From: a virus
DNA length: 64,000 nucleotides
IMG/VR virus record: IMGVR_UViG_3300000115_000012
Strand: one strand, 5' to 3'
Made by a program: the position numbers and the translations under genes. Shown here piece by piece: positions 8,936-57,356 of this stretch (position 1 is the stretch's first letter; the number at the start of each line of letters is the position of its first letter). The notes beneath the pieces were generated by a model, which was not told where the DNA came from, ran no database searches, and saw only the letters and a program-made list of their open reading frames with translations.

Positions 8936-9445
8936 ATGAACACTCAAATCCAAACTAAAACTGAAGCTCAAATCACTGAACTTAAATTCTCTGAGCAAGC
9001 TCCAATCTACAACGAATTTGCAGCTGCTTTAGGTATCAAACAAGTTAAGAAATTCCGTGACAAATCAACTGGTGTTTCTCGTATCATGCAAATCCAGGAA
9101 CAGTATGTTGAAGAGCGTGACGAAATCCTAGCTGAGCAAAAAGCTAAAGCGGCTAAAGCAGTTAAGAAAGTTGAAAAAGCTGTAGCTAAAGATACCAATC
9201 GTCAAACTCGCTTCGATATGGATTTAATCGTTACTACGGTTAAGGATGAATCTAAAGAAGGTACTATCGAAAACAGCCTTCACGCTGCGATTGCTTCAGG
9301 TTGTACTACAGCAGGTGAAATCGTTGACTGTCTTGTATCTACTCATAAACGTCCTCGTAGCGGTTTAGGTGTTGACGAACAATATGTTGTTCATAATATT
9401 AAGTGGTTCGTTAAGAAAGGTCACTTGAAATTGGCACAAGCATAA
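8936..9445 (+). CDS. hypothetical protein with a C-terminal putative winged-helix domain (paralogue A)
   Basis: Coiled Lys/Ala-rich middle; C-terminal ~60 aa aligns with the 9503-10159 product. Confidence 0.8.
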   Translation: MNTQIQTKTEAQITELKFSEQAPIYNEFAAALGIKQVKKFRDKSTGVSRIMQIQEQYVEERDEILAEQKAKAAKAVKKVEKAVAKDTNRQTRFDMDLIVTTVKDESKEGTIENSLHAAIASGCTTAGEIVDCLVSTHKRPRSGLGVDEQYVVHNIKWFVKKGHLKLAQA

Positions 9446-9458
9446 GTTAAAATTAACA

Positions 9459-9490
9459 GGGTATGGGATGTAACCTATACCCTTATTTAT
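9459..9490 (+). terminator. probable terminator hairpin
   Basis: agggtatggg-atgtaa-cctataccct followed by tattt. Confidence 0.55.
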
Positions 9491-9502: not shown

Positions 9503-10159
9503 ATGTTTTATGCAATAGATTTTGACTCTCGTACGGTAGAGTCTAAAAGTGAACAAGGCGAAGATTTAGCCGCTTATGTTCTAGATAACGATTTAACCCT
9601 AGCTATATCTCTGGTTGATAGTGAAGATGAATTATGTCTTAGCTTTTCATTAGGTGAGATGCAAGACCTTCATAATAATATTCAGTTAATGGATACTTTC
9701 TTTGAAGGTAAACATCCAGTATTCGCTGATGAGGAAGAAGCGGCTGAAGCATGTTGGAAAATACTTGAAGAGTACCAAGATGACTTCCCAAAATTCACTC
9801 CAGCTTTAGGTAAAAAATTACTCAAACAAGCTACAAAACAGTCCTCAGACAAGCCAAAACCAGCAGGTAAGCAAACGGCTAAAGTTAGCAAAGAGTCTAC
9901 TCCTCGTACTAGAGTTACCTTAAACAATGATGATTCTTTAACCGTTGTGGACGGTAAGTGTAAACAAGGTAGTATTCTACATACCATAGTTGTTGCTATT
10001 GACGATGAGTTCTGTGAGACAGTTGGTGATGTATTAGATTACATTGTAGCTAATCACGTTATCCCTAAAACTGGTGAATTAGCCGATATGAAGTTCGCTG
10101 AGCATAATATTAAGTATTTCCTCAAGCAAGGTAAGATTTCTACAGGAGAAGAACTATGA
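9503..10159 (+). CDS. hypothetical protein with a C-terminal putative winged-helix domain (paralogue B)
   Basis: AGGAG RBS; HNIKYFLKQGKI matches HNIKWFVKKGHL of the upstream gene; ATGA overlap with the glycosyltransferase. Confidence 0.8.
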   Translation: MFYAIDFDSRTVESKSEQGEDLAAYVLDNDLTLAISLVDSEDELCLSFSLGEMQDLHNNIQLMDTFFEGKHPVFADEEEAAEACWKILEEYQDDFPKFTPALGKKLLKQATKQSSDKPKPAGKQTAKVSKESTPRTRVTLNNDDSLTVVDGKCKQGSILHTIVVAIDDEFCETVGDVLDYIVANHVIPKTGELADMKFAEHNIKYFLKQGKISTGEEL

Positions 10160-11409
10160 GAGTTTTACTAGCTCATTTCCAAATACAGGATTGGGGAGGT
10201 ATTGTAAACTACTCTGAATTCCTGGCTCGTGGTCTTAAAGCAATCGGTCATGAAGTAGATTCTGTTATGCTTAAGAACAAAGGTAAAACAGGTTATAACA
10301 AGACCAAGGATCGTTCAGAAACTCAAGGTTGGGAATTCGGTCCAGGTTTAGGCTTATGGATGCATCAGAAATCTGGTTGGGATGGTATGTACCAACTCAA
10401 CTACACTACTGATGTGATGTCAGGTGAGTCTTGGACAGCTGATTACGACTTAGTGATTTATATTGTCCCAGTACCAACTTGTTCTAAAGCGACCAAAGGT
10501 GATGAGGGATGGTTAAAGCTGTTCCGTAACAGCTCAGCTAAACAGATTGCAGTTGTACATGATGGTAATATGCAAAAACTGTATCCTCACTTATTAAATA
10601 TATGTGAGGAACTTGACGGTATTGTATGTGTACATGATGCTTCGTTTAATAGTTGCGAAGTATTACCTGTTCGTCGTACATTTATTCCTAATCCTCATGA
10701 TTATGATCCTCTTTGTGATATTACACCGATGTCAGAACGTACCGATGGATTTGTGTCTATGCAGACATTTAAACGTTGGAAACGTGTTGATGATTTGGTA
10801 AGAGCTATTCCGTTTATGGATGATTTTCATGAGAAGATTATTTGTGGCGGTGGTATCGAATATCACTATATGACCAGTGAGACCAAATGTAAACCTATTT
10901 ATAAAGATGAAGACGGTAATCGTATTTGGGATAACGCTGTTAAGTCTGGTATGGACTTCCGTGGATATATTACTACCGTGGAACGTGATGCGATTCTGCA
11001 AGATGTTAAACTTCTAATAGACCCTAGTTGGTCATTGAAGTATTCCGAGTTAGGTGCTCACTTTAACCGAGTTATGGTTGAGGCAATGTCTTGGGGATGT
11101 GTACCAGTTTGTACCGATTTAGGTATGAAGAATAGTATCCTATTCAAACCTGGAGTTAATTATATCGAAGTACCTCATGATATAGACCCAGAGGGTTACG
11201 CTGATATTATTGATAAAGCTTTAACTAATGAATCTCTTCTAGAATATATCCAAGAGAAGAATTTATTATTAATGGAAGCTTTTGACAAAGATAATATTGC
11301 TAAAGCTATCGTTGAGTTTGCAGCAGGTGAGTCAGGTGAAGTTGGTAAAGCTACCGAAAAACTAATTACCGATGCAACTCGTAAAATGGATCATTTTGAG
11401 GACTTCTAA
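10156..11409 (+). CDS. GT-B fold (GT4-like) glycosyltransferase, probably DNA/nucleotide-modifying
   Basis: MRVLL...WGGIVNYSEFLARGLKAIGHEV N-terminus; KRWKRVDDLVRA; FNRVMVEAMSWGCVPVCTD donor-binding motif. Confidence 0.85.
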   Translation: MRVLLAHFQIQDWGGIVNYSEFLARGLKAIGHEVDSVMLKNKGKTGYNKTKDRSETQGWEFGPGLGLWMHQKSGWDGMYQLNYTTDVMSGESWTADYDLVIYIVPVPTCSKATKGDEGWLKLFRNSSAKQIAVVHDGNMQKLYPHLLNICEELDGIVCVHDASFNSCEVLPVRRTFIPNPHDYDPLCDITPMSERTDGFVSMQTFKRWKRVDDLVRAIPFMDDFHEKIICGGGIEYHYMTSETKCKPIYKDEDGNRIWDNAVKSGMDFRGYITTVERDAILQDVKLLIDPSWSLKYSELGAHFNRVMVEAMSWGCVPVCTDLGMKNSILFKPGVNYIEVPHDIDPEGYADIIDKALTNESLLEYIQEKNLLLMEAFDKDNIAKAIVEFAAGESGEVGKATEKLITDATRKMDHFEDF

Positions 11410-11410
11410 T

Positions 11411-12274
11411 ATGAAGGATGAAATGATTCATAAGTTCTTTGCTTTTGTGCAATGTCGTCATTATATTTGGCAAGCTAAGGATAAAGGTTTGCCAAAACCA
11501 TGGACTGATATTGAGATATTACAGGAGTATAAGTTCTGTAACGTATTTCGTGAATTGGATACAGTTACAATATGGATAGATAAAAATATCCGTCAACGTT
11601 GGGCTAATCATAAATACTTGTGGTTTGCCTTATGTGTTGCTCGTCGTATAAACTTACCAGAAACATTGGAATATCTTAATGAGTTCTTAGTTGATTGGGA
11701 CGCTGATAAAGTACATGCTATATTGGAGAGACGTAAATCTAAAGGTCTTCCCATTTATAATAGTGCTTACTCATTAACTACCGCCAGTCGTAAAATGGAT
11801 AAGAATACATATACTGTTTACGAGTGTCTAGATAAGTTATGGGAAAAGCGTGAAGAAATTACCAACTGGTTAAGGTGGGATTCCTGGGACTCACTGGAGC
11901 GTACCTTTAATAAGTTTGCGAAGGGTAATCCTGGTATTAGTGGTTTTCTAGCTTATGAGATAGTAACTGACTTGCGTCATACTCGTTATCTTCGTAATGC
12001 TATGGATACTATGAGTTGGGCTAATGCAGGACCAGGAGCTGTTAGAGGTTTGAACCGTATCTACGAAAAACCTATAACTAGGAAAATTAATGCTTGTCAA
12101 GCCAACAAAGATATGCAAAAATTATTGTCGTTGGCTGAGTTGTATAACCCTGACAGTTTTCCAAAGATGGAAATGAGGGATATAGAACACTGCTTATGTG
12201 AGTTCGATAAGTTCATGAGAATCAAATTAGGTAAGAGTTTTCTCTGCCGTAAATATAATGGAAAAGGTGAATAA
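11411..12274 (+). CDS. alpha-glutamyl/putrescinyl-thymine pyrophosphorylase clade 1-like protein (HhH-glycosylase-related; thymidine hypermodification)
   Basis: YKFCNVFRELDTVT.WI, GFLAYEIVTDLRHT, GPGAVRGLNRI, DIEHCLCEFDKF; start moved to ATG 11411 behind GAGG. Confidence 0.8.
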   Translation: MKDEMIHKFFAFVQCRHYIWQAKDKGLPKPWTDIEILQEYKFCNVFRELDTVTIWIDKNIRQRWANHKYLWFALCVARRINLPETLEYLNEFLVDWDADKVHAILERRKSKGLPIYNSAYSLTTASRKMDKNTYTVYECLDKLWEKREEITNWLRWDSWDSLERTFNKFAKGNPGISGFLAYEIVTDLRHTRYLRNAMDTMSWANAGPGAVRGLNRIYEKPITRKINACQANKDMQKLLSLAELYNPDSFPKMEMRDIEHCLCEFDKFMRIKLGKSFLCRKYNGKGE

Positions 12275-12275
12275 T

Positions 12276-13331
12276 ATGTTAGTAATTAATGCTCGTAATG
12301 CAAATGACGCTTTGGGTCAGGGTATCCAATTAATTCAAGAATCAGCTGAAGCTATTGAGAGTCGTGTGGGTATGACTCTTGAAGTTCCAATGTCAGTTAC
12401 CACGGTTTACCACAAACCTTGGGAACGTGTACTACTTAGTAAAGTTCGTGACGCTAATCCTTTCTTCCACTTAATGGAAGCTATGTGGATTATTGCTGGT
12501 CGTCAAGATGTTAAGTTCCTAACTGAGTTTAACAAACGTATGGCTGATTACAGTGATGACGGTGAAGTATTCAATGCACCTTATGGTCACCGTATGCGTA
12601 ACCACTTCCCTAGTATTTATCAAGGTGAGACTACGCTAGACCAACTTAAAACTGTAATTGGTATTTTACGTAACGATCCTAACAGTCGTCAAGCGGTAGT
12701 ACAGATTTGGGACTCTAAAGATTTAGCTCCTGAAATTAACACTAAAGATAAAGCCTGTAATATGTCTATCGTGTTTCGTATTCGTAACGGTGAACTTTGT
12801 GTCACAGTTTACAACCGTTCTAACGATATGATTTGGGGAGCTTATGGTGCTAACGTAGTGCAGTTTAGTATGATTCAAGAGTACGTAGCGGCTCAATTAG
12901 GACTCCCTCTTGGTACTTACACGCAAGTTAGTAATTCATACCACGTTTATACAACTGGTGCAGGTGGTAAAGTCTGGGATCGTTTAGTTGAGTCTTACGA
13001 TGCAGATAAAGATATTTACGACTCAGTTGTTAATAATCAAGTGTATATGATGGATTATGACATGTCAGCAATGGACTACGATTTGGCTATGTTCTTTAAC
13101 GCTTATGACCAGTTTGGTATTGATGAGTTAGGTGAGATGCGTTGTTGGCAATCTCAGTATTTTAATCAATTGATCATGCCTGTTTTGTGTATCTACTTAA
13201 TTCACAAACAACATGGTCCGACTCAAGCTTTAAAATACACCCATACCATTCAATCTGATGATTGGCGTATAGCTTGTGAAGATTGGCTAACTAACCGTGA
13301 AGAAGCTCGTAAAGCTAAAGAGGTTAAATAA
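12276..13331 (+). CDS. Thymidylate-synthase-fold dUMP hydroxymethylase (5hmdUMP synthase)
   Basis: EAMWIIAG, PNSRQAV, catalytic KACN, RSNDMIWGAYGAN (Asn at the dUMP-specificity position), SYHVY. Confidence 0.82.
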   Translation: MLVINARNANDALGQGIQLIQESAEAIESRVGMTLEVPMSVTTVYHKPWERVLLSKVRDANPFFHLMEAMWIIAGRQDVKFLTEFNKRMADYSDDGEVFNAPYGHRMRNHFPSIYQGETTLDQLKTVIGILRNDPNSRQAVVQIWDSKDLAPEINTKDKACNMSIVFRIRNGELCVTVYNRSNDMIWGAYGANVVQFSMIQEYVAAQLGLPLGTYTQVSNSYHVYTTGAGGKVWDRLVESYDADKDIYDSVVNNQVYMMDYDMSAMDYDLAMFFNAYDQFGIDELGEMRCWQSQYFNQLIMPVLCIYLIHKQHGPTQALKYTHTIQSDDWRIACEDWLTNREEARKAKEVK

Positions 13332-13834
13332 TGAATATTTCAAAAGTATTAGAAAGTTCAGGTGTTAGCCGTTTCCATGCAGTACCAGGATTGGCTCAGC
13401 AGACCATAGCTCAGCATTCTTGGGGAGTGTCTATGTTATGCCAATATTTTAATCCTGAGTGCCGTAAGGAGCTTGTTTTATCAGCTTTAACTCATGACTG
13501 TACTGAGTTAGTTACTGGTGACATCCCAGCTACAGCCAAATGGGAATCTCCTGAACTGAAAGTTATTTTAGACCAAATCGAGTCTAAGACTGAACAGGAA
13601 TGGGGAATACAGTTTACACTTGACGAAGATGAGAAGCGTCTACTTAAATTATGTGACGGTCTTGAAGGTATGAATTATTGCCTTGAACGTCGCAGACAAG
13701 GAGAGTTAGAAGCATCTGTTGTATTTTACCGTTGGGCTGACTTTATCATGGGTAAATTTGTATTCAATGAGAAAGAAACAGAATTCTTTTCTACTTTAAT
13801 TAATAAAATGGGGAATCTTACCAATGGAAGTTAA
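13331..13834 (+). CDS. HD-domain (YfbR-like) deoxynucleotide phosphohydrolase
   Basis: RFH....QTIAQHSW, LTHDCTELVTGDIP, LKLCDGLE. Confidence 0.85.
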   Translation: MNISKVLESSGVSRFHAVPGLAQQTIAQHSWGVSMLCQYFNPECRKELVLSALTHDCTELVTGDIPATAKWESPELKVILDQIESKTEQEWGIQFTLDEDEKRLLKLCDGLEGMNYCLERRRQGELEASVVFYRWADFIMGKFVFNEKETEFFSTLINKMGNLTNGS

Positions 13835-14228
13835 TGAAATTCAAATCGGTGGTAAACACTATAAACGTGAATATCAGCACTGGGATCTTGTTTGTGACTT
13901 AGAGTTACATTACTTGTTAGGTTGTTCAACTAAATATGTATCTCGTTGGCAAGAAAAGAACGGTCTTGAAGATTTACGTAAATCTCTTCATTATATTGCT
14001 AAGTTTGAAGATAAAGGTTTATTGGTTGAAGAGTACACACATGAGCAGTCTAATAATCTAGATATGTTCTGTGATCAACTTCACCATGTTGACGGTATTA
14101 TTGTTAAACTTATTTGTTTAGGTTCGTTTGAAGAAGCTGTCAAACTTATCAATGAATTAATCGAGGAAGTTGAGAGCGGTCCAACTTCTAATTACGTAGA
14201 CCCAGACAACAATTATATTAGAGGTTAG
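13824..14228 (+). CDS. DUF3310-family (T7 gp1.7/SaV-like) putative nucleotide kinase
   Basis: QIGGKHYK, LGCSTKYVSRWQEKNGLEDLRKSLHY. Confidence 0.78.
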   Translation: MEVNEIQIGGKHYKREYQHWDLVCDLELHYLLGCSTKYVSRWQEKNGLEDLRKSLHYIAKFEDKGLLVEEYTHEQSNNLDMFCDQLHHVDGIIVKLICLGSFEEAVKLINELIEEVESGPTSNYVDPDNNYIRG

Positions 14229-14229
14229 T

Positions 14230-14775
14230 ATGTCGTTATTATCTTATAATGCTTTAGTAGGTTTAGTTCAGGAAGGAGTTATCAACGCTCCACTTGAACA
14301 TATTAGCGGTGCAAGTATTGATATTACAATTGGTGAAGATATCCTAATTGAAAAACCAATGTCTCAGCAACCAATCATTGACCTTAAATCCAAACAGTCA
14401 CTTGAGTTGCGTCGTCATCGCATACATAATGATGGTTTCCGTTTATATCCTGGTCAGTTTATCCTAGCGACAAGTCAGGAAACGTTCAACTTACCAAACG
14501 ATGTAGCCTGTGAATATAAACTGAAGAGTTCTCTAGCTCGTTCAGGTTTACAACACATGTTAGCAGGTTGGTGTGATCCAGGTTGGAATAATTCTAAGTT
14601 AACTTTGGAAATTAAGAATGTTACGCAGAATCACATTCTATTATTAAAACCTGGAATGAAGATTGGACAGATGGTATTCTTTGAATGCGAACCAGTTCCT
14701 GACGAGCATAGTTATGCTAATACAGGTCAGTATAACGGGCAAGACACTGTAACTGAGAATAAAGGTGTAAGATAA
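14230..14775 (+). CDS. dcd: dCTP deaminase (possibly bifunctional dCTP deaminase/dUTPase)
   Basis: ASIDITIG, KSSLARSGL, AGWCDPGW...LTLEI, PGMKIGQMVFF, Y.GQ. Confidence 0.92.
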   Translation: MSLLSYNALVGLVQEGVINAPLEHISGASIDITIGEDILIEKPMSQQPIIDLKSKQSLELRRHRIHNDGFRLYPGQFILATSQETFNLPNDVACEYKLKSSLARSGLQHMLAGWCDPGWNNSKLTLEIKNVTQNHILLLKPGMKIGQMVFFECEPVPDEHSYANTGQYNGQDTVTENKGVR

Positions 14776-14780
14776 TATTT

Positions 14781-14807
14781 AGGCTACTTCGGTAGCCTTT
14801 ATTCTTT
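14781..14807 (+). terminator. Rho-independent terminator closing the modification operon
   Basis: aggctac-TTCG-gtagcct followed by ttattcttt. Confidence 0.75.
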
Positions 14808-14816
14808 GGAGTTATT

Positions 14817-16676
14817 ATGAATCATAAGAAACTATTAACGTGTGACGTTGAATGTTACACCAACTACTTTCTAATAATGTTTAGAAAGGTATCGAGCGGA
14901 GATATTATTTACTTTGAGAAGTTTAACGGTTCAGAGTTAAATAGACAGAATATCCTCCATATTATTAACAAGTATACGATTATAACTTTTAACGGTAACT
15001 CGTATGACCAAGTGGTTATTGAAGCAGCTTGTCAGGGATTCAGCAATGAGTCTCTTAAGAAAATAACCGATTATCTTATTGTTGGTAAAGACGGTAGAGG
15101 TAATCAAGCTTGGCAAGCTCGTAAGCAGTTTGGTATTGGTAAAATGGAATTTGACCATATTGACTTAATTGAGGTAGCTCCATTGTCAGCCTCACTTAAG
15201 ATTTATGGTGGTCGTTTACATTCCCCTAAAATGCAAGATTTACCTATCGCACCTGATGCAATTATCCAGGAAGAAGATTTACCTGATATGCGTAAATATT
15301 GTGGTAATGACTTGGATGTTACTGAACGGTTATTCCTACAGTTAGAACCTGAGATAGAACTACGTACCATGATGTCTAAAGAGTACGGTGTGGACTTACG
15401 TTCTAAATCAGATGCACAAATAGCTGAAGCAGTAATTAAGAAGGAAATGGACGACAATTATGGTTTTATACCTAAACGTCCAAAAGTAGAACCAGGAACT
15501 CAATATACATATAAAGCTCCTGCTAATTTAGAATTCAATAGTGAAGTTCTACAAGACCTATTTCGTCAATATACCACTATACCGTTTGAAGTTAATAAAT
15601 CAGGTTATGTGGAATTCAACTTTGAAATGTTGGAATCTGACCGTATTAAATCAGGTAAGAAGAAAGGTGAATTTCCAGCTAGTAAAAAGCAGATGAAGTT
15701 CATGATAGGTAATACTAAGTATACAGCTGGAATCGGTGGTCTGCATAGTTGTGAGAAAGGTGCTCGTCATACCAATAATGGTAATATATTACGCGATTAC
15801 GATGTAGCGAGTTACTATCCTCGTATTATTCTTAACAACCGTCTATATCCTAAGCATATCGGTGAACCGTTCTTGGCTATTTACGAGTCCATTGTTGACC
15901 GTCGTCTAAAGGCTAAACGTAGCGGTGACAAAGTAACCAACGAATCACTTAAGATTACCATTAACGGATCATTCGGTAAACTTGGTAGTAAATGGTCTTG
16001 TTTATACTCACCTGATCTTATGCTCCAAGTTACGGTTACTGGTCAACTTAGTTTGTTAATGTTGATTGAACGCTTAGAACTAGCTGGGATATCAGTAGTT
16101 AGTGCGAATACCGATGGTATTGTTGTTAAGATGAAACCTGAGCAGGAAGCCAAAGCGGAGGAAATAGTTGAAGATTGGCAATTCGATACCGATTACGAGC
16201 TTGAGGGTACTGATTATGTAAGTCTAAACAGTCGTGATATTAACAACTATATAGCAGTAAAATCTAGCGGAAGTAAGGGTAAAGGAGCTTACTCAGACCA
16301 ACGTGAGCACTATTACAAGCTACGTAGTAACCCAAGTAATGATATCTGTACCGAGGCTGTTAAGTTGTTCTTACAGGACGGTACTCCAGTTGAAGAAACA
16401 ATACGAGCTTGCCAGGATATTACCAAGTTCCTAAACTTGAGAACCGTAAATGGCGGTGCTGTAAAAGACGGTCAAGTTATTGGTAAGGCTATCAGATGGT
16501 ATTATGGGTCTGAAGAGCTTGATGCAATATTTTATAATACTAATGGTAATAAAGTACCAAAGTCCGATGGCGGTGTACCGCTTATGGACTTACCAGATGA
16601 GTTCCCTGAAGATGTGGATTTCAACTGGTACGTAACCGAAGCCAAACGTATACTAAAAGATATTGGATGGAAATAA
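14817..16676 (+). CDS. Family B DNA polymerase with 3'-5' exonuclease
   Basis: Exo DVECY, FNGNSYD, YCGND; polymerase DYDVASYYP, KITINGSFGK, ANTDG. Confidence 0.93.
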   Translation: MNHKKLLTCDVECYTNYFLIMFRKVSSGDIIYFEKFNGSELNRQNILHIINKYTIITFNGNSYDQVVIEAACQGFSNESLKKITDYLIVGKDGRGNQAWQARKQFGIGKMEFDHIDLIEVAPLSASLKIYGGRLHSPKMQDLPIAPDAIIQEEDLPDMRKYCGNDLDVTERLFLQLEPEIELRTMMSKEYGVDLRSKSDAQIAEAVIKKEMDDNYGFIPKRPKVEPGTQYTYKAPANLEFNSEVLQDLFRQYTTIPFEVNKSGYVEFNFEMLESDRIKSGKKKGEFPASKKQMKFMIGNTKYTAGIGGLHSCEKGARHTNNGNILRDYDVASYYPRIILNNRLYPKHIGEPFLAIYESIVDRRLKAKRSGDKVTNESLKITINGSFGKLGSKWSCLYSPDLMLQVTVTGQLSLLMLIERLELAGISVVSANTDGIVVKMKPEQEAKAEEIVEDWQFDTDYELEGTDYVSLNSRDINNYIAVKSSGSKGKGAYSDQREHYYKLRSNPSNDICTEAVKLFLQDGTPVEETIRACQDITKFLNLRTVNGGAVKDGQVIGKAIRWYYGSEELDAIFYNTNGNKVPKSDGGVPLMDLPDEFPEDVDFNWYVTEAKRILKDIGWK

Positions 16677-38793: not shown

Positions 38794-39540
38794 TTACATG
38801 GAACTACTACTGTATAACATATCTTCAAACACGATTAGATCCTCTACTGCATCCATTGTAGGGTCTATTTGGTCATCATGTTTGTGAGTCATAAGAGGAG
38901 TAAACTTGCGGAACTCCTCTTTATAATCGTGTAAGTATTCAGCGTTACGAGGTAAATGAATATATCCAGCTGCAAAGTATTTAACCACACCCATAGCCCT
39001 TAATACTTTATCAGTATTACGTTGGATAGGTTCTACGGGAATCATGTAGTCCTTTTTAATAGATTGAATAAGTGAACTACCAGAACTCTTATCTTCAATC
39101 TTGACTACTTGTGCTCCCATTGGTTTAAATTGAGTTGGTTTATGTTTATTCCAAAACTCCACTAACTTAGACTCTAAATCTGGAGCTTCCCATTTACCTC
39201 TAAATTGATCAACCAGGAATATACCCTGAGTACGGGATCTAGCCCATAATTGGAATACACTAAAGTCATTACGCTCTTTGGTCTTCTGTGCTGTATCCCC
39301 GTATATACGGTACAGGTCTATATCAGCAGGTAGGACGTCATAATATTTCCAATATTTATCCTTAAACATACCTCCGCCAAGTGGACTAGGATTCTGTTGA
39401 TACTGGGATGAAAAAGTATACTTATCACCCTCTTCGATTACCCGTAGTTTTGGAAGGTCTTGTTTAAAAGCCCAAAGCGGACTTCCTAGCGGTATTTCCG
39501 CTGGACAAATATTTGCTATTTCTTGCATACTAAAAATCAT
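38794..39540 (-). CDS. terL: Terminase large subunit, C-terminal nuclease part
   Basis: PLW, QYQQNP, GDTAQK..ERNDFSVF, IEDKSSG..LIQ, DKV.RA, HDDQID. Confidence 0.9.
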   Translation of the reverse strand: MIFSMQEIANICPAEIPLGSPLWAFKQDLPKLRVIEEGDKYTFSSQYQQNPSPLGGGMFKDKYWKYYDVLPADIDLYRIYGDTAQKTKERNDFSVFQLWARSRTQGIFLVDQFRGKWEAPDLESKLVEFWNKHKPTQFKPMGAQVVKIEDKSSGSSLIQSIKKDYMIPVEPIQRNTDKVLRAMGVVKYFAAGYIHLPRNAEYLHDYKEEFRKFTPLMTHKHDDQIDPTMDAVEDLIVFEDMLYSSSSM

Positions 39541-40396
39541 ACTGTGTACCGTCTGCTAAGCATTTTAGTATATCGTTAATATGGATTTGTTTACCGTTAG
39601 TATAGTCAGCTGGATAAGGCTTATTGATCTCTTCTTCACTGAGTAAAGTGGGGATAGTTAGATGATGCCAAATATCACCCGAACCACCTTTGAGTAGATA
39701 CCCACTTAGGTCATCTTCATGAATACGCTGCATAATAACCACCATAGGGACTTCCTCTACAGCTAAACGACTACGCATAGTATTGTTAAAGCGGTTGTTA
39801 ATAGCGTTACGCTTAACAGCTGAGTAAGCATCATCAGGTTTAACAGGATCATCAATTACAAATGCACCAGTAAACCCAGACTCCATTCTACCTGCACGGA
39901 AACCAGTAATCTGACCTCCAGCAGGAGCAGCCATCATACCACCACCTTTCTCGGTAAACCAGCGTTTCTTACCTTTGGAGTCAACTCTAATATCCATAGG
40001 CCAGAGTTCTTGAAACTGCTCACCGCCTACCATCTCTTTAATTTTAGAGGAGTTCTCTTGGGCTAAGTCGCCTGAGTATGAGGCATGGATGTATTTAGAA
40101 CGAGGGTTAATAGCTAACCCTCTAGCAATAAAATTGAGTACGACCTGCTCAGTCTTTGAATAGCCTGGAGCGATATTAACCACTAGTCTTTGGATTTTGC
40201 CGTCATACACTGCTTGCAGGACGTACTCAATAACGTAATGATGCCAATTACGTAGCATCTTTGTTCCTTCACGATGCTTAAAGAAATAACGCATAAATTG
40301 AATACCGTCATTCTCTAGCATATACTTGAGCATACGTAGTTCGTTGTATGACCAAGGTTGTAAATCTTGTTCTTCTTGGGAGTTAGAAATCGTCAT
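39530..40396 (-). CDS. terL: Terminase large subunit, N-terminal ATPase part
   Basis: NWHH, Walker A NIAPGYSKT, ASYS..LA, Walker B VIDDPVK, IMQRIHEDDL. Confidence 0.9.
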   Translation of the reverse strand: MTISNSQEEQDLQPWSYNELRMLKYMLENDGIQFMRYFFKHREGTKMLRNWHHYVIEYVLQAVYDGKIQRLVVNIAPGYSKTEQVVLNFIARGLAINPRSKYIHASYSGDLAQENSSKIKEMVGGEQFQELWPMDIRVDSKGKKRWFTEKGGGMMAAPAGGQITGFRAGRMESGFTGAFVIDDPVKPDDAYSAVKRNAINNRFNNTMRSRLAVEEVPMVVIMQRIHEDDLSGYLLKGGSGDIWHHLTIPTLLSEEEINKPYPADYTNGKQIHINDILKCLADGTQYDF

Positions 40397-42343: not shown

Positions 42344-42648
42344 TTATTAGACTCCTTATTACAGTTACATATTGATTTATGATTATAACAGCCACCACAA
42401 TAAGGAGGTCCATAGGAACAAGTTGGATCCTTATCTCCTGGTTGCATTATTTCCTCTTCACCCCATGAGTGAGTTAGGTCAGGTACAAAAGTCATTGATG
42501 TTTGCCATGCATAACCATCAGTAGGTCTCATGTCTTCATGTAAAGAAACATATACATCCTGATGAACTTTGACTAACCATCCACCAGGAACTTTAGCTCT
42601 TTGGTGGAAGTCGTCTATGTCTTCCCAATCTAAATTTACTTTAATCAC
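42340..42648 (-). CDS. hypothetical protein with a Cys-rich C-terminus
   Basis: RAKVPGGWLV motif; C....YCGGC.....CNC. Confidence 0.7.
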   Translation of the reverse strand: MIKVNLDWEDIDDFHQRAKVPGGWLVKVHQDVYVSLHEDMRPTDGYAWQTSMTFVPDLTHSWGEEEIMQPGDKDPTCSYGPPYCGGCYNHKSICNCNKESNK

Positions 42649-43187
42649 TTCTTTTCTCCTAATAGTCTAGTCCACATCATTGTTATATATTGTGCCTGAA
42701 ATTTAGCATCATCTAAAGCATTATGAGCTCCTTGACGATTCACCGTTTTATTGAACCCACCTCTTGTGGACTCATACATATCCAGTACCGTACGACAATC
42801 TCTAATATTCCAAAACTTCCAAGGGATTTCAATATCGTACTGACGGTAAGCATCCTCAAGCATAGAGATATCAAACGTAGCTCCGTTACCCCATATCTTA
42901 GCATCTTTGGGCAACCACTCAGCAAGCTCTTTAAGGACGTCGTCTAAAGCATCCAAACCAAAGTGAGCTGCTTTGGCTTCGGCTGTTTGACCTTCCCACC
43001 ACTCAGTAGTTTCTGAACAGATGTGTCGTTCCTGGTCTTCCCAATCTAACTCACGGTAGAATGTCTCCTTAGACACTTTACCGTAACGAGGGTCAAACAC
43101 AATAGCACCGATAGAGACAATAGCTGATTGCGGAGTAGTTCCCATTGTTTCTAAGTCTATCATTACGTGACGTAGTTGTTTAGTCAT
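42645..43187 (-). CDS. DEDDh exonuclease (copy 2)
   Basis: Identical to 64-606. Confidence 0.85.
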   Translation of the reverse strand: MTKQLRHVMIDLETMGTTPQSAIVSIGAIVFDPRYGKVSKETFYRELDWEDQERHICSETTEWWEGQTAEAKAAHFGLDALDDVLKELAEWLPKDAKIWGNGATFDISMLEDAYRQYDIEIPWKFWNIRDCRTVLDMYESTRGGFNKTVNRQGAHNALDDAKFQAQYITMMWTRLLGEKK

Positions 43188-52083: not shown

Positions 52084-52740
52084 ATGTTTTATGCAATAGA
52101 TTTTGACTCTCGTACGGTAGAGTCTAAAAGTGAACAAGGCGAAGATTTAGCCGCTTATGTTCTAGATAACGATTTAACCCTAGCTATATCTCTGGTTGAT
52201 AGTGAAGATGAATTATGTCTTAGCTTTTCATTAGGTGAGATGCAAGACCTTCATAATAATATTCAGTTAATGGATACTTTCTTTGAAGGTAAACATCCAG
52301 TATTCGCTGATGAGGAAGAAGCGGCTGAAGCATGTTGGAAAATACTTGAAGAGTACCAAGATGACTTCCCAAAATTCACTCCAGCTTTAGGTAAAAAATT
52401 ACTCAAACAAGCTACAAAACAGTCCTCAGACAAGCCAAAACCAGCAGGTAAGCAAACGGCTAAAGTTAGCAAAGAGTCTACTCCTCGTACTAGAGTTACC
52501 TTAAACAATGATGATTCTTTAACCGTTGTGGACGGTAAGTGTAAACAAGGTAGTATTCTACATACCATAGTTGTTGCTATTGACGATGAGTTCTGTGAGA
52601 CAGTTGGTGATGTATTAGATTACATTGTAGCTAATCACGTTATCCCTAAAACTGGTGAATTAGCCGATATGAAGTTCGCTGAGCATAATATTAAGTATTT
52701 CCTCAAGCAAGGTAAGATTTCTACAGGAGAAGAACTATGA
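52084..52740 (+). CDS. paralogue B (copy 2)
   Basis: Identical to 9503-10159. Confidence 0.8.
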   Translation: MFYAIDFDSRTVESKSEQGEDLAAYVLDNDLTLAISLVDSEDELCLSFSLGEMQDLHNNIQLMDTFFEGKHPVFADEEEAAEACWKILEEYQDDFPKFTPALGKKLLKQATKQSSDKPKPAGKQTAKVSKESTPRTRVTLNNDDSLTVVDGKCKQGSILHTIVVAIDDEFCETVGDVLDYIVANHVIPKTGELADMKFAEHNIKYFLKQGKISTGEEL

Positions 52741-53990
52741 GAGTTTTACTAGCTCATTTCCAAATACAGGATTGGGGAGGTATTGTAAACTACTCTGAAT
52801 TCCTGGCTCGTGGTCTTAAAGCAATCGGTCATGAAGTAGATTCTGTTATGCTTAAGAACAAAGGTAAAACAGGTTATAACAAGACCAAGGATCGTTCAGA
52901 AACTCAAGGTTGGGAATTCGGTCCAGGTTTAGGCTTATGGATGCATCAGAAATCTGGTTGGGATGGTATGTACCAACTCAACTACACTACTGATGTGATG
53001 TCAGGTGAGTCTTGGACAGCTGATTACGACTTAGTGATTTATATTGTCCCAGTACCAACTTGTTCTAAAGCGACCAAAGGTGATGAGGGATGGTTAAAGC
53101 TGTTCCGTAACAGCTCAGCTAAACAGATTGCAGTTGTACATGATGGTAATATGCAAAAACTGTATCCTCACTTATTAAATATATGTGAGGAACTTGACGG
53201 TATTGTATGTGTACATGATGCTTCGTTTAATAGTTGCGAAGTATTACCTGTTCGTCGTACATTTATTCCTAATCCTCATGATTATGATCCTCTTTGTGAT
53301 ATTACACCGATGTCAGAACGTACCGATGGATTTGTGTCTATGCAGACATTTAAACGTTGGAAACGTGTTGATGATTTGGTAAGAGCTATTCCGTTTATGG
53401 ATGATTTTCATGAGAAGATTATTTGTGGCGGTGGTATCGAATATCACTATATGACCAGTGAGACCAAATGTAAACCTATTTATAAAGATGAAGACGGTAA
53501 TCGTATTTGGGATAACGCTGTTAAGTCTGGTATGGACTTCCGTGGATATATTACTACCGTGGAACGTGATGCGATTCTGCAAGATGTTAAACTTCTAATA
53601 GACCCTAGTTGGTCATTGAAGTATTCCGAGTTAGGTGCTCACTTTAACCGAGTTATGGTTGAGGCAATGTCTTGGGGATGTGTACCAGTTTGTACCGATT
53701 TAGGTATGAAGAATAGTATCCTATTCAAACCTGGAGTTAATTATATCGAAGTACCTCATGATATAGACCCAGAGGGTTACGCTGATATTATTGATAAAGC
53801 TTTAACTAATGAATCTCTTCTAGAATATATCCAAGAGAAGAATTTATTATTAATGGAAGCTTTTGACAAAGATAATATTGCTAAAGCTATCGTTGAGTTT
53901 GCAGCAGGTGAGTCAGGTGAAGTTGGTAAAGCTACCGAAAAACTAATTACCGATGCAACTCGTAAAATGGATCATTTTGAGGACTTCTAA
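52737..53990 (+). CDS. GT-B glycosyltransferase (copy 2)
   Basis: Identical to 10156-11409. Confidence 0.85.
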   Translation: MRVLLAHFQIQDWGGIVNYSEFLARGLKAIGHEVDSVMLKNKGKTGYNKTKDRSETQGWEFGPGLGLWMHQKSGWDGMYQLNYTTDVMSGESWTADYDLVIYIVPVPTCSKATKGDEGWLKLFRNSSAKQIAVVHDGNMQKLYPHLLNICEELDGIVCVHDASFNSCEVLPVRRTFIPNPHDYDPLCDITPMSERTDGFVSMQTFKRWKRVDDLVRAIPFMDDFHEKIICGGGIEYHYMTSETKCKPIYKDEDGNRIWDNAVKSGMDFRGYITTVERDAILQDVKLLIDPSWSLKYSELGAHFNRVMVEAMSWGCVPVCTDLGMKNSILFKPGVNYIEVPHDIDPEGYADIIDKALTNESLLEYIQEKNLLLMEAFDKDNIAKAIVEFAAGESGEVGKATEKLITDATRKMDHFEDF

Positions 53991-53991
53991 T

Positions 53992-54855
53992 ATGAAGGAT
54001 GAAATGATTCATAAGTTCTTTGCTTTTGTGCAATGTCGTCATTATATTTGGCAAGCTAAGGATAAAGGTTTGCCAAAACCATGGACTGATATTGAGATAT
54101 TACAGGAGTATAAGTTCTGTAACGTATTTCGTGAATTGGATACAGTTACAATATGGATAGATAAAAATATCCGTCAACGTTGGGCTAATCATAAATACTT
54201 GTGGTTTGCCTTATGTGTTGCTCGTCGTATAAACTTACCAGAAACATTGGAATATCTTAATGAGTTCTTAGTTGATTGGGACGCTGATAAAGTACATGCT
54301 ATATTGGAGAGACGTAAATCTAAAGGTCTTCCCATTTATAATAGTGCTTACTCATTAACTACCGCCAGTCGTAAAATGGATAAGAATACATATACTGTTT
54401 ACGAGTGTCTAGATAAGTTATGGGAAAAGCGTGAAGAAATTACCAACTGGTTAAGGTGGGATTCCTGGGACTCACTGGAGCGTACCTTTAATAAGTTTGC
54501 GAAGGGTAATCCTGGTATTAGTGGTTTTCTAGCTTATGAGATAGTAACTGACTTGCGTCATACTCGTTATCTTCGTAATGCTATGGATACTATGAGTTGG
54601 GCTAATGCAGGACCAGGAGCTGTTAGAGGTTTGAACCGTATCTACGAAAAACCTATAACTAGGAAAATTAATGCTTGTCAAGCCAACAAAGATATGCAAA
54701 AATTATTGTCGTTGGCTGAGTTGTATAACCCTGACAGTTTTCCAAAGATGGAAATGAGGGATATAGAACACTGCTTATGTGAGTTCGATAAGTTCATGAG
54801 AATCAAATTAGGTAAGAGTTTTCTCTGCCGTAAATATAATGGAAAAGGTGAATAA
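53992..54855 (+). CDS. aGPT-PPlase clade 1-like protein (copy 2)
   Basis: Identical to 11411-12274. Confidence 0.8.
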   Translation: MKDEMIHKFFAFVQCRHYIWQAKDKGLPKPWTDIEILQEYKFCNVFRELDTVTIWIDKNIRQRWANHKYLWFALCVARRINLPETLEYLNEFLVDWDADKVHAILERRKSKGLPIYNSAYSLTTASRKMDKNTYTVYECLDKLWEKREEITNWLRWDSWDSLERTFNKFAKGNPGISGFLAYEIVTDLRHTRYLRNAMDTMSWANAGPGAVRGLNRIYEKPITRKINACQANKDMQKLLSLAELYNPDSFPKMEMRDIEHCLCEFDKFMRIKLGKSFLCRKYNGKGE

Positions 54856-54856
54856 T

Positions 54857-55912
54857 ATGTTAGTAATTAATGCTCGTAATGCAAATGACGCTTTGGGTCA
54901 GGGTATCCAATTAATTCAAGAATCAGCTGAAGCTATTGAGAGTCGTGTGGGTATGACTCTTGAAGTTCCAATGTCAGTTACCACGGTTTACCACAAACCT
55001 TGGGAACGTGTACTACTTAGTAAAGTTCGTGACGCTAATCCTTTCTTCCACTTAATGGAAGCTATGTGGATTATTGCTGGTCGTCAAGATGTTAAGTTCC
55101 TAACTGAGTTTAACAAACGTATGGCTGATTACAGTGATGACGGTGAAGTATTCAATGCACCTTATGGTCACCGTATGCGTAACCACTTCCCTAGTATTTA
55201 TCAAGGTGAGACTACGCTAGACCAACTTAAAACTGTAATTGGTATTTTACGTAACGATCCTAACAGTCGTCAAGCGGTAGTACAGATTTGGGACTCTAAA
55301 GATTTAGCTCCTGAAATTAACACTAAAGATAAAGCCTGTAATATGTCTATCGTGTTTCGTATTCGTAACGGTGAACTTTGTGTCACAGTTTACAACCGTT
55401 CTAACGATATGATTTGGGGAGCTTATGGTGCTAACGTAGTGCAGTTTAGTATGATTCAAGAGTACGTAGCGGCTCAATTAGGACTCCCTCTTGGTACTTA
55501 CACGCAAGTTAGTAATTCATACCACGTTTATACAACTGGTGCAGGTGGTAAAGTCTGGGATCGTTTAGTTGAGTCTTACGATGCAGATAAAGATATTTAC
55601 GACTCAGTTGTTAATAATCAAGTGTATATGATGGATTATGACATGTCAGCAATGGACTACGATTTGGCTATGTTCTTTAACGCTTATGACCAGTTTGGTA
55701 TTGATGAGTTAGGTGAGATGCGTTGTTGGCAATCTCAGTATTTTAATCAATTGATCATGCCTGTTTTGTGTATCTACTTAATTCACAAACAACATGGTCC
55801 GACTCAAGCTTTAAAATACACCCATACCATTCAATCTGATGATTGGCGTATAGCTTGTGAAGATTGGCTAACTAACCGTGAAGAAGCTCGTAAAGCTAAA
55901 GAGGTTAAATAA
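54857..55912 (+). CDS. dUMP hydroxymethylase (copy 2)
   Basis: Identical to 12276-13331. Confidence 0.82.
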   Translation: MLVINARNANDALGQGIQLIQESAEAIESRVGMTLEVPMSVTTVYHKPWERVLLSKVRDANPFFHLMEAMWIIAGRQDVKFLTEFNKRMADYSDDGEVFNAPYGHRMRNHFPSIYQGETTLDQLKTVIGILRNDPNSRQAVVQIWDSKDLAPEINTKDKACNMSIVFRIRNGELCVTVYNRSNDMIWGAYGANVVQFSMIQEYVAAQLGLPLGTYTQVSNSYHVYTTGAGGKVWDRLVESYDADKDIYDSVVNNQVYMMDYDMSAMDYDLAMFFNAYDQFGIDELGEMRCWQSQYFNQLIMPVLCIYLIHKQHGPTQALKYTHTIQSDDWRIACEDWLTNREEARKAKEVK

Positions 55913-56415
55913 TGAATATTTCAAAAGTATTAGAAAGTTCAGGTGTTAGCCGTTTCCATGCAGTACCAGGATTGGCTCAGCAGACCATAGCTCAGCATTC
56001 TTGGGGAGTGTCTATGTTATGCCAATATTTTAATCCTGAGTGCCGTAAGGAGCTTGTTTTATCAGCTTTAACTCATGACTGTACTGAGTTAGTTACTGGT
56101 GACATCCCAGCTACAGCCAAATGGGAATCTCCTGAACTGAAAGTTATTTTAGACCAAATCGAGTCTAAGACTGAACAGGAATGGGGAATACAGTTTACAC
56201 TTGACGAAGATGAGAAGCGTCTACTTAAATTATGTGACGGTCTTGAAGGTATGAATTATTGCCTTGAACGTCGCAGACAAGGAGAGTTAGAAGCATCTGT
56301 TGTATTTTACCGTTGGGCTGACTTTATCATGGGTAAATTTGTATTCAATGAGAAAGAAACAGAATTCTTTTCTACTTTAATTAATAAAATGGGGAATCTT
56401 ACCAATGGAAGTTAA
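55912..56415 (+). CDS. HD-domain deoxynucleotide phosphohydrolase (copy 2)
   Basis: Identical to 13331-13834. Confidence 0.85.
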   Translation: MNISKVLESSGVSRFHAVPGLAQQTIAQHSWGVSMLCQYFNPECRKELVLSALTHDCTELVTGDIPATAKWESPELKVILDQIESKTEQEWGIQFTLDEDEKRLLKLCDGLEGMNYCLERRRQGELEASVVFYRWADFIMGKFVFNEKETEFFSTLINKMGNLTNGS

Positions 56416-56809
56416 TGAAATTCAAATCGGTGGTAAACACTATAAACGTGAATATCAGCACTGGGATCTTGTTTGTGACTTAGAGTTACATTACTTGTTA
56501 GGTTGTTCAACTAAATATGTATCTCGTTGGCAAGAAAAGAACGGTCTTGAAGATTTACGTAAATCTCTTCATTATATTGCTAAGTTTGAAGATAAAGGTT
56601 TATTGGTTGAAGAGTACACACATGAGCAGTCTAATAATCTAGATATGTTCTGTGATCAACTTCACCATGTTGACGGTATTATTGTTAAACTTATTTGTTT
56701 AGGTTCGTTTGAAGAAGCTGTCAAACTTATCAATGAATTAATCGAGGAAGTTGAGAGCGGTCCAACTTCTAATTACGTAGACCCAGACAACAATTATATT
56801 AGAGGTTAG
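56405..56809 (+). CDS. DUF3310 putative nucleotide kinase (copy 2)
   Basis: Identical to 13824-14228. Confidence 0.78.
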   Translation: MEVNEIQIGGKHYKREYQHWDLVCDLELHYLLGCSTKYVSRWQEKNGLEDLRKSLHYIAKFEDKGLLVEEYTHEQSNNLDMFCDQLHHVDGIIVKLICLGSFEEAVKLINELIEEVESGPTSNYVDPDNNYIRG

Positions 56810-56810
56810 T

Positions 56811-57356
56811 ATGTCGTTATTATCTTATAATGCTTTAGTAGGTTTAGTTCAGGAAGGAGTTATCAACGCTCCACTTGAACATATTAGCGGTGCAAGTATT
56901 GATATTACAATTGGTGAAGATATCCTAATTGAAAAACCAATGTCTCAGCAACCAATCATTGACCTTAAATCCAAACAGTCACTTGAGTTGCGTCGTCATC
57001 GCATACATAATGATGGTTTCCGTTTATATCCTGGTCAGTTTATCCTAGCGACAAGTCAGGAAACGTTCAACTTACCAAACGATGTAGCCTGTGAATATAA
57101 ACTGAAGAGTTCTCTAGCTCGTTCAGGTTTACAACACATGTTAGCAGGTTGGTGTGATCCAGGTTGGAATAATTCTAAGTTAACTTTGGAAATTAAGAAT
57201 GTTACGCAGAATCACATTCTATTATTAAAACCTGGAATGAAGATTGGACAGATGGTATTCTTTGAATGCGAACCAGTTCCTGACGAGCATAGTTATGCTA
57301 ATACAGGTCAGTATAACGGGCAAGACACTGTAACTGAGAATAAAGGTGTAAGATAA
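56811..57356 (+). CDS. dcd: dCTP deaminase (copy 2)
   Basis: Identical to 14230-14775. Confidence 0.92.
   Translation: MSLLSYNALVGLVQEGVINAPLEHISGASIDITIGEDILIEKPMSQQPIIDLKSKQSLELRRHRIHNDGFRLYPGQFILATSQETFNLPNDVACEYKLKSSLARSGLQHMLAGWCDPGWNNSKLTLEIKNVTQNHILLLKPGMKIGQMVFFECEPVPDEHSYANTGQYNGQDTVTENKGVR

Follow-up and report, generated by a model that had tools for sequence, protein, structure and literature searches.

Hypermodified bases protect phage DNA from restriction enzymes and CRISPR nucleases, and the pathways that make them are a source of enzymes for DNA labelling. The closest described systems, those of the M6-like Yuavirus group (represented here by SN1), PaMx11, ViI, PhiW-14 and SP10, follow a pathway built on a 5-hydroxymethyluridine DNA kinase (5-HMUDK) and an amino-acid:DNA transferase, and the virion DNA of M6 bears a base derived from 5-hydroxymethyldeoxyuridine (5hmdU) (PMC5889632, PMC8989533). 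Here we describe an operon of a small marine myovirus (IMG/VR virus record IMGVR_UViG_3300000115_000012) that encodes a glycosyltransferase (GT) of the GT-B fold, a PF18723 protein and a thymidylate synthase (TS) homologue. The stretch analyzed (64,000 nucleotides, hereafter the window) runs once around a circular genome of 42,581 bp and into a second turn, with bases 1-300 reappearing at 42582-42881, and the modification block is thus present twice (10156-14775 and 52737-57356). With moderate confidence, we read the operon as a kinase-free thymidine-hypermodification pathway that would place a sugar-decorated, 5-hydroxymethyluracil (5hmU)-derived thymine in the virion DNA.

The window follows the logic of the M6-type clusters, in which 5hmdU DNA is made and then modified on the polymer. 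Specifically, it shares with M6 and SN1 orthologous, collinear genes for PF18723, the proposed dUMP hydroxymethylase (the TS homologue), an HD hydrolase and a DUF3310 protein beside the polymerase gene, at 34-46% identity to those of SN1. Unlike M6 and SN1, it lacks the PF18748 kinase, the PF18724 clade-2 transferase and the tailoring enzymes that depend on pyridoxal phosphate (PLP), radical S-adenosylmethionine (radical SAM) or flavin adenine dinucleotide, and a GT-B enzyme holds the kinase position. The backbones also differ, being a 42.6-kb myovirus with a PolB-like polymerase in the window and a 60-kb siphovirus with PolA in M6 and SN1. A six-frame Walker-A scan of the 42.6 kb returned no small P-loop open reading frame (ORF), and no match was obtained there when the kinase, the clade-2 transferase and the PLP and radical SAM enzymes of SN1 served as tblastn queries. 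Custom unfiltered profiles for the same four enzymes, each built from 10-15 homologues (15 sequences for the kinase and 13 for clade 2), reached a best E of 0.19 across all ORFs of at least 60 amino acids. Likewise, PF18748 (5-hmdU DNA kinase) and PF18724 (clade 2, ADDT) were not found in Pfam scans of 30 window ORFs, while the SN1 kinase and clade-2 proteins do score on these two families. An earlier note on this DNA had pointed to the missing kinase, clade-2 transferase, PLP and radical SAM genes and to a GT in the kinase slot, and both statements held.

The same note had proposed a candidate new pathway, and its newness is not supported. The association was reported in 2022 for HTVC023P-type pelagiphages, in which TS, aGPT-Pplase1, a 5'-deoxynucleotidase as well as a 'beta-glucosyl-HMC-alpha-glucosyltransferase' lie near the polymerase (PMC9599517), it is visible in the 2004 record of phage PhiJL001, and the design is widespread and common in marine viromes. 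Like the window, the HTVC023P type and PhiJL001 are kinase-free and carry PF18723 beside a glycosyltransferase and a hydroxymethylase, near the polymerase. However, their glycosyltransferase is a TAGT-family GT-A enzyme (PF20691) and their backbone that of a podovirus or siphovirus with PolA, whereas the window has an unrelated GT4-like GT-B enzyme. What is particular to the window phage is the combination of a GT4-like GT-B enzyme with the small backbone of a PolB myovirus, a version without a cultured representative.

Two further systems share parts of the design. On the one hand, base J (made by the kinetoplastid JBP hydroxylase and J glucosyltransferase) and phage clusters of a T-dioxygenase with GTs resemble the window in the type of end product proposed for it, 5hmU in DNA with a sugar attached to its hydroxymethyl group, and the phage T-dioxygenase clusters point independently to glycosylated 5hmU (PMC13229309). 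In the window, however, 5hmU would come from a TS-fold enzyme acting on nucleotides, with no oxidation of T within the DNA; compared with base J, the GT has the GT-B and not the JGT/TAGT fold, and a helix-hairpin-helix (HhH) enzyme is additional. On the other hand, T-even phages (gp42 and the alpha- and beta-GTs) share TS-fold hydroxymethylation before replication followed by GT-B glycosylation on DNA. They differ in the specificity residue (Asp for cytosine in the T-even type, Asn for uracil in the window), in a GT to which ours is not detectably related beyond the fold (T4 alpha-GT), and in having no counterpart of PF18723. In the literature searched, we came across no report establishing what the TS-based kinase-free design produces or what PF18723 does, and no chemical demonstration in any phage of sugar-decorated 5hmU arising from nucleotide-level 5hmdU.

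The operon comprises seven coupled genes, neighbours abutting or overlapping, between two terminators:

9458-9483, + strand: intrinsic-terminator-like hairpin with a 10-bp stem and T-rich tail; it closes the preceding gene and is the upstream operon edge
9503-10159, + strand: 218-amino-acid protein of no assigned function; its stop overlaps the GT start (ATGA), and it is co-transcribed
10156-11409, + strand: GT-B glycosyltransferase of GT4 type, 417 amino acids (Pfam, AlphaFold2, Foldseek)
11411-12274, + strand: PF18723 protein, formerly aGPT-Pplase clade 1 and now 'HMUDK_hel' (Pfam E 8e-47); the ORF opens at 11372
12258-13331, + strand: thymidylate-synthase-fold enzyme, proposed dUMP hydroxymethylase (Thymidylat_synt E 3e-22; phrog_5131 E 4e-104)
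13331-13834, + strand: HD-domain hydrolase, YfbR-like 5'-deoxynucleotidase (Pfam YfbR-like/HD and PHROGs)
13824-14228, + strand: DUF3310 protein (Pfam DUF3310; PHROG 'nucleotide kinase' families via the same domain)
14230-14775, + strand: dCTP deaminase family protein (Pfam DCD E 8e-34; phrog_1663 E 1e-47)
14781-14798, + strand: terminator hairpin AGGCTAC-TTCG-GTAGCCT followed by a T-run; downstream operon edge
14817-16676, + strand: family B-like DNA polymerase, outside the block and given for context (phrog_1252 E 4e-192)

Gene linkage across viral loci

IMG/VR was scanned with an alignment of the GT, which yielded 71 viral loci (handles of the form L007 below). PF18723, GT and TS lie side by side in about 60 of these, in the order GT-PF18723-TS on the window's PolB backbone and PF18723-GT-TS on the PolA backbone. 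Within 7 kb, SN1-type kinase, clade-2 transferase, PLP and radical SAM genes were found in none of the GT loci. We also surveyed the linkage from the PF18723 side, for which there were at least 585 viral loci and the 80 nearest were considered. A TAGT-family GT-A gene (PF20691, E 6e-24) stands directly downstream of PF18723 in 51 of these 80, while 13-14 have an M6-type kinase cluster, 3 a GT-B gene and ten no assigned partner. Of these ten, a few were inspected, and the gene directly upstream is a divergent TAGT in L151 and weakly GT-B-like in L108; when the GT profile was run against the ORFs upstream of PF18723, the L108 gene gave a weak full-length alignment (E 0.04) and L134 gave nothing. 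The cultured phage PhiJL001 (AY576273) encodes PF18723 as gp19, a TAGT as gp22 (E 3e-53) and TS as gp24, and no Walker-A gene was found near this modification locus.

A 44-kb sibling contig, L077 (IMGVR_UViG_3300024265_000102), has the window's backbone and a PF18723 protein that is 55% identical. Here, two tandem TAGT-family GT-A genes (L077:4270-6716) occupy the exact slot of the GT-B gene, directly upstream of PF18723. Non-homologous GTs have been swapped in nature, so that the GT-B and TAGT versions on one phage backbone amount to a natural swap experiment, and the slot beside PF18723 takes a glycosyltransferase of either fold. In the PF18723 tree, the type of partner switches at least 3-5 times on well-supported branches. 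The conserved element is thus a glycosyltransferase of any fold beside PF18723 and the hydroxymethylase, which is a strong argument that the modified DNA of the phage itself, and not a surface glycan, is what the GT acts on. Conserved synteny across about 60 contigs and the in-place exchange of GT-B for TAGT in L077 also support the earlier suggestion that the modified thymine bears a sugar.

Three loci depart from this arrangement in having the GT gene (62-65% identical) followed directly by TS, with no PF18723 between them (L007:231-2470, L008:1-2270 and L009:231-2484); L007 and L009 show frame breaks upstream. The intact GT beside TS in L007 and L008 suggests that the GT is independent of any PF18723 product. 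Related loci also contain sugar-tailoring neighbours, namely an FkbM methyltransferase, a cupin and, in 18 loci, a cytidylyltransferase-like gene. The latter (PF01467, E 9e-17) follows the HD gene at L054:12298-12735 and in 17 other PolA-backbone loci, may provide the GT with an activated donor, and is absent from the window's genome.

Other observations concern gene content around PF18723 and TS. L069, a divergent locus, is the lone GT locus with a kinase-like gene, a small P-loop gene of AAA_33 type. Its order (L069:6959-13067) is GT (30% identity), the AAA_33/APS-kinase-like gene, PF18723 and then TS, and the kinase and GT designs may have been combined in this locus as a hybrid. In L135:4048-6008 and L151:5047-5973, a radical SAM-SPASM gene and a divergent TAGT lie directly upstream of PF18723 and TS, a content that suggests further tailoring chemistry. 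Finally, PolA-backbone loci carry between TS and PolA a conserved protein of about 115-135 amino acids with the motif SYGNSW..RGG.GAFMMLARKWDR and no Pfam family (L035:9363-9761 and 45 other loci; L115:7303-7644).

The glycosyltransferase and the nucleotide-level enzymes

The Pfam matches of the GT barely exceed their cut-offs (Glyco_trans_1_4 at 31.2 bits and Glycos_transf_1 at 29.3 bits). Its AlphaFold2 model, built on 38 homologues, shows a two-Rossmann GT-B fold with a predicted local distance difference test score (pLDDT) of 93.4 and a predicted template modelling score of 0.90, and Foldseek matched it to HepE, PimA, TarM, MshA and BshA at E 1e-13 to 1e-10 with probability 1.0. The C-terminal motif for nucleoside diphosphate (NDP)-sugars, FNR..VEAM..G.VP (FNRVMVEAMSWGCVPV), aligns with that of BshA and HepE in the family profile; E309, K206, K209 and the G14-G15 pair are invariant in the 38 homologues. 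The GT therefore looks like a working NDP-sugar enzyme. It is not of the TAGT/base-J type (PF20691, GT-A), since only Glycos_transf_1-type Pfam matches were obtained and the fold is GT-B. In a viral structure library, the second-best match is the GT of Bacillus phage SP-15. We propose DNA 5hmU or a derivative of it as the acceptor, on the grounds of the linkage to TS and PF18723 and the TAGT swap.

The GT family has at least 189 homologues, many of them on 43-48-kb contigs. No tblastn match to the window GT was obtained among 50,697 phage records, and we found no cultured carrier of this GT-B enzyme. A scan of bacterial genomes recovered only phage contigs binned into metagenome-assembled genomes (MAGs) and, in the chromosome of a Pseudomonadales MAG, a single GT with a frameshift, and therefore allowed no host assignment. 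The frameshift-split homologue (L160:5001-6246, OY282460.1; 39% identity) sits in a 4.3-Mb chromosome assembly, PF18723 and TS were not found within 5 kb of it, and it may be what is left of a decayed prophage.

In tblastn, the TS homologue and its SN1 counterpart share 36% identity. Its Asn in RSNDMIWGAYGAN aligns with the Asn of the PFN motif of thymidylate synthase, a position held by Asp in the CMP hydroxymethylase MilA, in agreement with the dUMP-type assignment made earlier. This specificity Asn and the catalytic Cys are invariant in 143 TS homologues from kinase-type, GT-B-type and TAGT-type loci, M6-like ones included; the Asp that marks the T4 gp42-type dCMP hydroxymethylase at the pyrimidine-specificity position occurs in none of them. 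A reasonable reading of these alignments is that the TS homologue is a dUMP hydroxymethylase making 5-hydroxymethyl-dUMP (5hm-dUMP), because M6 DNA carries a 5hmdU-derived base (PMC5889632). Downstream, the HD gene is syntenic with the HD gene of SN1 (34% identity) and the DUF3310 gene with SN1_014. The nucleotide kinase gp1.7 of T7 carries a DUF3310 domain (E 4.5e-23), which makes a role of the window protein as a 5hm-dUMP kinase plausible, and it is possibly such a kinase, although a pairwise BLASTP comparison of the two proteins was not significant.

The PF18723 protein and the proposed pathway

The PF18723 match is strong, scoring 160.4 bits against a cut-off of 25 and covering positions 2-276 of the 281 in the profile, and the protein is 40% identical to M6 gp55 and SN1_020. 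The protein belongs to a large family, with 3,539 representatives at E <=0.001, and the longer proteins among 150 representatives had no second Pfam domain. In SP10 gp186, PF18723 is fused to a kinase (PMC5889632), from which the Pfam name 'HMUDK_hel' appears to derive. The AlphaFold2 model (pLDDT 93.3) shows an HhH DNA-glycosylase-like fold with a GPG hairpin at 220-222. A sequence search against the PDB gave nothing and Foldseek returned weak rows only, while an exhaustive VIA search placed PaMx11 gp46 (8z2m) as the best solved match (Z 10.7 over 218 residues, identity ~10%), followed by a queuine-salvage DUF2419 enzyme and the HhH glycosylases Ogg, EndoIII and MutY.

PaMx11 gp46 (PUGT; 8z2m/8z2n) is a glycinyltransferase acting on 5-phosphomethyldeoxyuridine (5-PmdU), in which Cys247 is the catalytic nucleophile and Glu243 binds metal (PMC11472151). 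It shares with PF18723 the fold and the Glu-x3-Cys motif: the IEHCLC of PF18723 aligns with VETVLC of the SN1 clade-2 enzyme, that is, with Glu243-x3-Cys247 of gp46. It differs in belonging to another Pfam family (PF18724) and in using a phosphorylated 5hmU substrate, which the window phage cannot make. In PF18723, C276, E277 and K280 are invariant, and position 272 is Glu in 52 of 64 sequences and Gln in the other 12. Because of the gp46-like fold and the Cys/Glu motif, PF18723 looks catalytically able to attack a 5-substituted uracil at C6, and sequence and model together suggest that it is probably an enzyme. A predicted complex of GT and PF18723 scored 0.00, which weighs neither for nor against binding.

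In the proposed pathway, homology and synteny with M6-like phages suggest that the dCTP deaminase would supply dUTP/dUMP, the dUMP hydroxymethylase would convert dUMP to 5hm-dUMP, and the HD hydrolase would deplete the pool of dTMP or dTTP; phosphorylation of 5hm-dUMP may fall to the DUF3310 protein. The phage polymerase, which would necessarily accept 5hm-dUTP, would then synthesize DNA with 5hmU replacing T. As conserved linkage and fold indicate, the GT4-type GT-B enzyme would use a host NDP-sugar to glycosylate the base on DNA, most likely at the hydroxymethyl oxygen of 5hmU to give a base-J-like O-glycoside, and the sugar-decorated thymine derivatives in virion DNA would block restriction. 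In the least certain step, PF18723 may flip the same base through its HhH fold and attack C6 with the invariant Cys as clade-2 transferases do. Our preferred guess is that it handles 5hmU that is not (yet) glycosylated, for example converting it to thymine or adding a second substituent; that it prepares the acceptor for the GT is not favoured. Direct O-glycosylation is favoured because there is the TAGT precedent (relatives such as the kinetoplastid J glucosyltransferase act on 5hmU directly), because tandem GTs and tailoring neighbours imply a retained glycan, and because L007 and L008 have the GT without PF18723.

What PF18723 does may bear on an older question. The virions of SP10, PhiW-14, M6 and ViI contain no 5hmdU, which is converted on the polymer to the hypermodified base or to thymine (PMC8989533), and the thymine-forming step has been described as having an unknown mechanism (PMC5977210). 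With borohydride, the clade-2 enzyme M6 gp51 yields thymidine (PMC8989533); by analogy, an enzyme that generates an exocyclic methylene could form thymine given a hydride donor. We tentatively suggest, as a possible but doubtful role, that PF18723 is the missing polymer-level enzyme that turns 5hmU into thymine or another non-sugar product via a Cys-C6 adduct and an exocyclic methylene, and that the GT-linked, kinase-free PF18723 clade would act without a phosphate leaving group on 5hmU or glycosyl-5hmU. Kinase-free thymine formation would need the elimination of water or of a glycoside. If true, this would explain why PF18723 is found with the hydroxymethylase regardless of which enzyme decorates the base, why the hypermodified base of M6 can form without gp55, and why virions of hypermodifying phages contain T and no 5hmU. 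PF18723 would thus be a candidate for a conversion that has gone unexplained for decades, that of 5hmU to thymine in DNA. Because its clade stands apart from the kinase and the clade-2 transferase in the kinase-free design, its reaction can be tested directly.

Several points weigh against the pathway as a whole. The acceptor of the GT is deduced solely from gene linkage, and apart from the general GT-B fold the GT is unrelated to proven hmU/hmC DNA glycosyltransferases. Even with Asn, a TS homologue might in principle still yield dTMP. M6 gp55 is dispensable in vitro for the formation of N-alpha-glycinylthymidine and belongs to a clade without demonstrated activity (PMC8989533). The known relatives of PF18723 require a phosphate leaving group that the window phage cannot make. 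L007-L009 are 5-kb contigs, and a PF18723 gene may sit elsewhere in those genomes. Finally, the searched literature reports no chemistry for any member of the kinase-free design.

Among the alternatives, the one that survives best, although we regard it as unlikely, is that PF18723 acts first. It would dehydrate unactivated 5hmU through the Cys-C6 adduct and add an amino acid, amine or polyol, and the GT would glycosylate the appended group, giving a thymine with linker and sugar like the SP-15-type modifications. The conserved catalytic Cys and Glu, the clade-2 relatives that carry out this kind of transfer (PMC8989533, PMC11472151), the rank of the SP-15 GT among viral structural matches, and the tight coupling of the two genes (stop, then start one base on) are all consistent with such an order. 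However, those relatives require 5-PmdU, and the window genome has no kinase. The intact GT beside TS without PF18723 in L007 and L008 and the direct action of TAGT relatives on 5hmU also favour direct O-glycosylation.

It is improbable that the GT stands in for the kinase, with the sugar serving as a leaving group that PF18723 displaces with a nucleophile or hydride to leave a sugar-free final DNA. The GT does hold the position that the P-loop kinase has beside PF18723 in M6 and SN1. Moreover, kinase-linked PF18723 proteins have Arg at window residues 136 (87%) and 155 (80%), while the GT-B- and TAGT-linked ones have Thr at 136 (89% and 96%, respectively) and Pro at 155 (75% and 92%). These differences could reflect lost phosphate contacts or simply phylogeny. 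On the other hand, an alkoxide sugar leaves poorly, and the tandem TAGTs of L077 and the sugar-tailoring neighbours suggest glycans that are built and retained. As evidence of phosphate binding, the kinase-specific Arg residues were rejected, phylogeny being a confounder.

We assign a similarly low probability to a non-enzymatic PF18723 that would recognise 5hmU, flip the base and present it to an adjacent kinase or GT. Pairing with kinases, GT-B and GT-A enzymes alike, the kinase fusion in SP10 gp186 (PMC5889632) and the DNA-binding HhH fold would suit an adaptor. Yet its Cys-Glu pair is invariant at the clade-2 catalytic position, and M6 gp54 and the SP10 kinase domain phosphorylate 5hmU DNA unaided (PMC8989533). 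Least probable is that the GT modifies a host or virion glycan with its operon position incidental, or that TS is an ordinary thymidylate synthase and the DNA unmodified: the usual GT4 substrates are lipids, polysaccharides and small molecules and the Pfam scores of the GT are marginal, but the adjacency to PF18723 and TS persists over two replication backbones and two gene orders, the DNA-associated TAGT family replaces the GT in place in L077, and TS is orthologous to that of the 5hmdU-making M6-like phages.

Operon boundaries and genome context

The six gene assignments of the earlier note were borne out by Pfam matches to the plus-strand ORFs at 10156-11409, 11372-12274, 12258-13331, 13331-13834, 13824-14228 and 14230-14775. 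Its six-gene block kept its downstream end, where the UUCG terminator corresponds to the TTCG-loop hairpin and T-run at 14781-14798, but not its upstream end, which moves one gene earlier to 9503, behind the terminator at 9458-9483. An AGGAG Shine-Dalgarno sequence and the ATG at 9503 come after this hairpin. The family-B polymerase does follow the block directly: the gene matches phrog_1252, is annotated as PolB in relatives and shows a weak match to E. coli Pol II. Within the block, the PF18723 gene most likely begins at ATG 11411 and not at the ORF opening at 11372, given a GAGGA box 6 nucleotides upstream, its position one base past the GT stop codon and the 287-amino-acid length of the closest homologue.

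The 218-amino-acid protein at 9503-10159 matched no Pfam or PHROG family. Together with 8936-9445 it forms a pair of tandem paralogues with a common C-terminal domain. An iterated profile found its family upstream of the modification clusters in 44 of the 71 GT loci and also in SN1 (SN1_026, kinase type) and PhiJL001 (gp18, TAGT type), so the family is a common companion of such clusters and is not specific to the GT design.

The genome is, as the earlier note held, that of a small myovirus: within its 42,581 bp it encodes a tail sheath protein (phrog_205, E 8e-118), the wedge and hub of a baseplate, a tape measure protein, a portal and a major head protein. The replication module consists of a primase-helicase, a DUF2800 nuclease, a single-stranded DNA-binding protein, an SNF2 helicase and the phrog_1252 polymerase. 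A megablast of the block against the 50,697 phage records gave no match, none of them being close at the DNA level, and partial relatives of the phage were found in marine metagenomes. The large terminase is encoded on the minus strand by two ORFs that span 38794-40396 and overlap by 11 nucleotides, of which 39530-40396 holds the N-terminal 288-amino-acid part, without a Pfam match, and 38794-39540 the Terminase_6C nuclease part; the two parts could result from a frameshift or a programmed slip, or the gene could truly be split.

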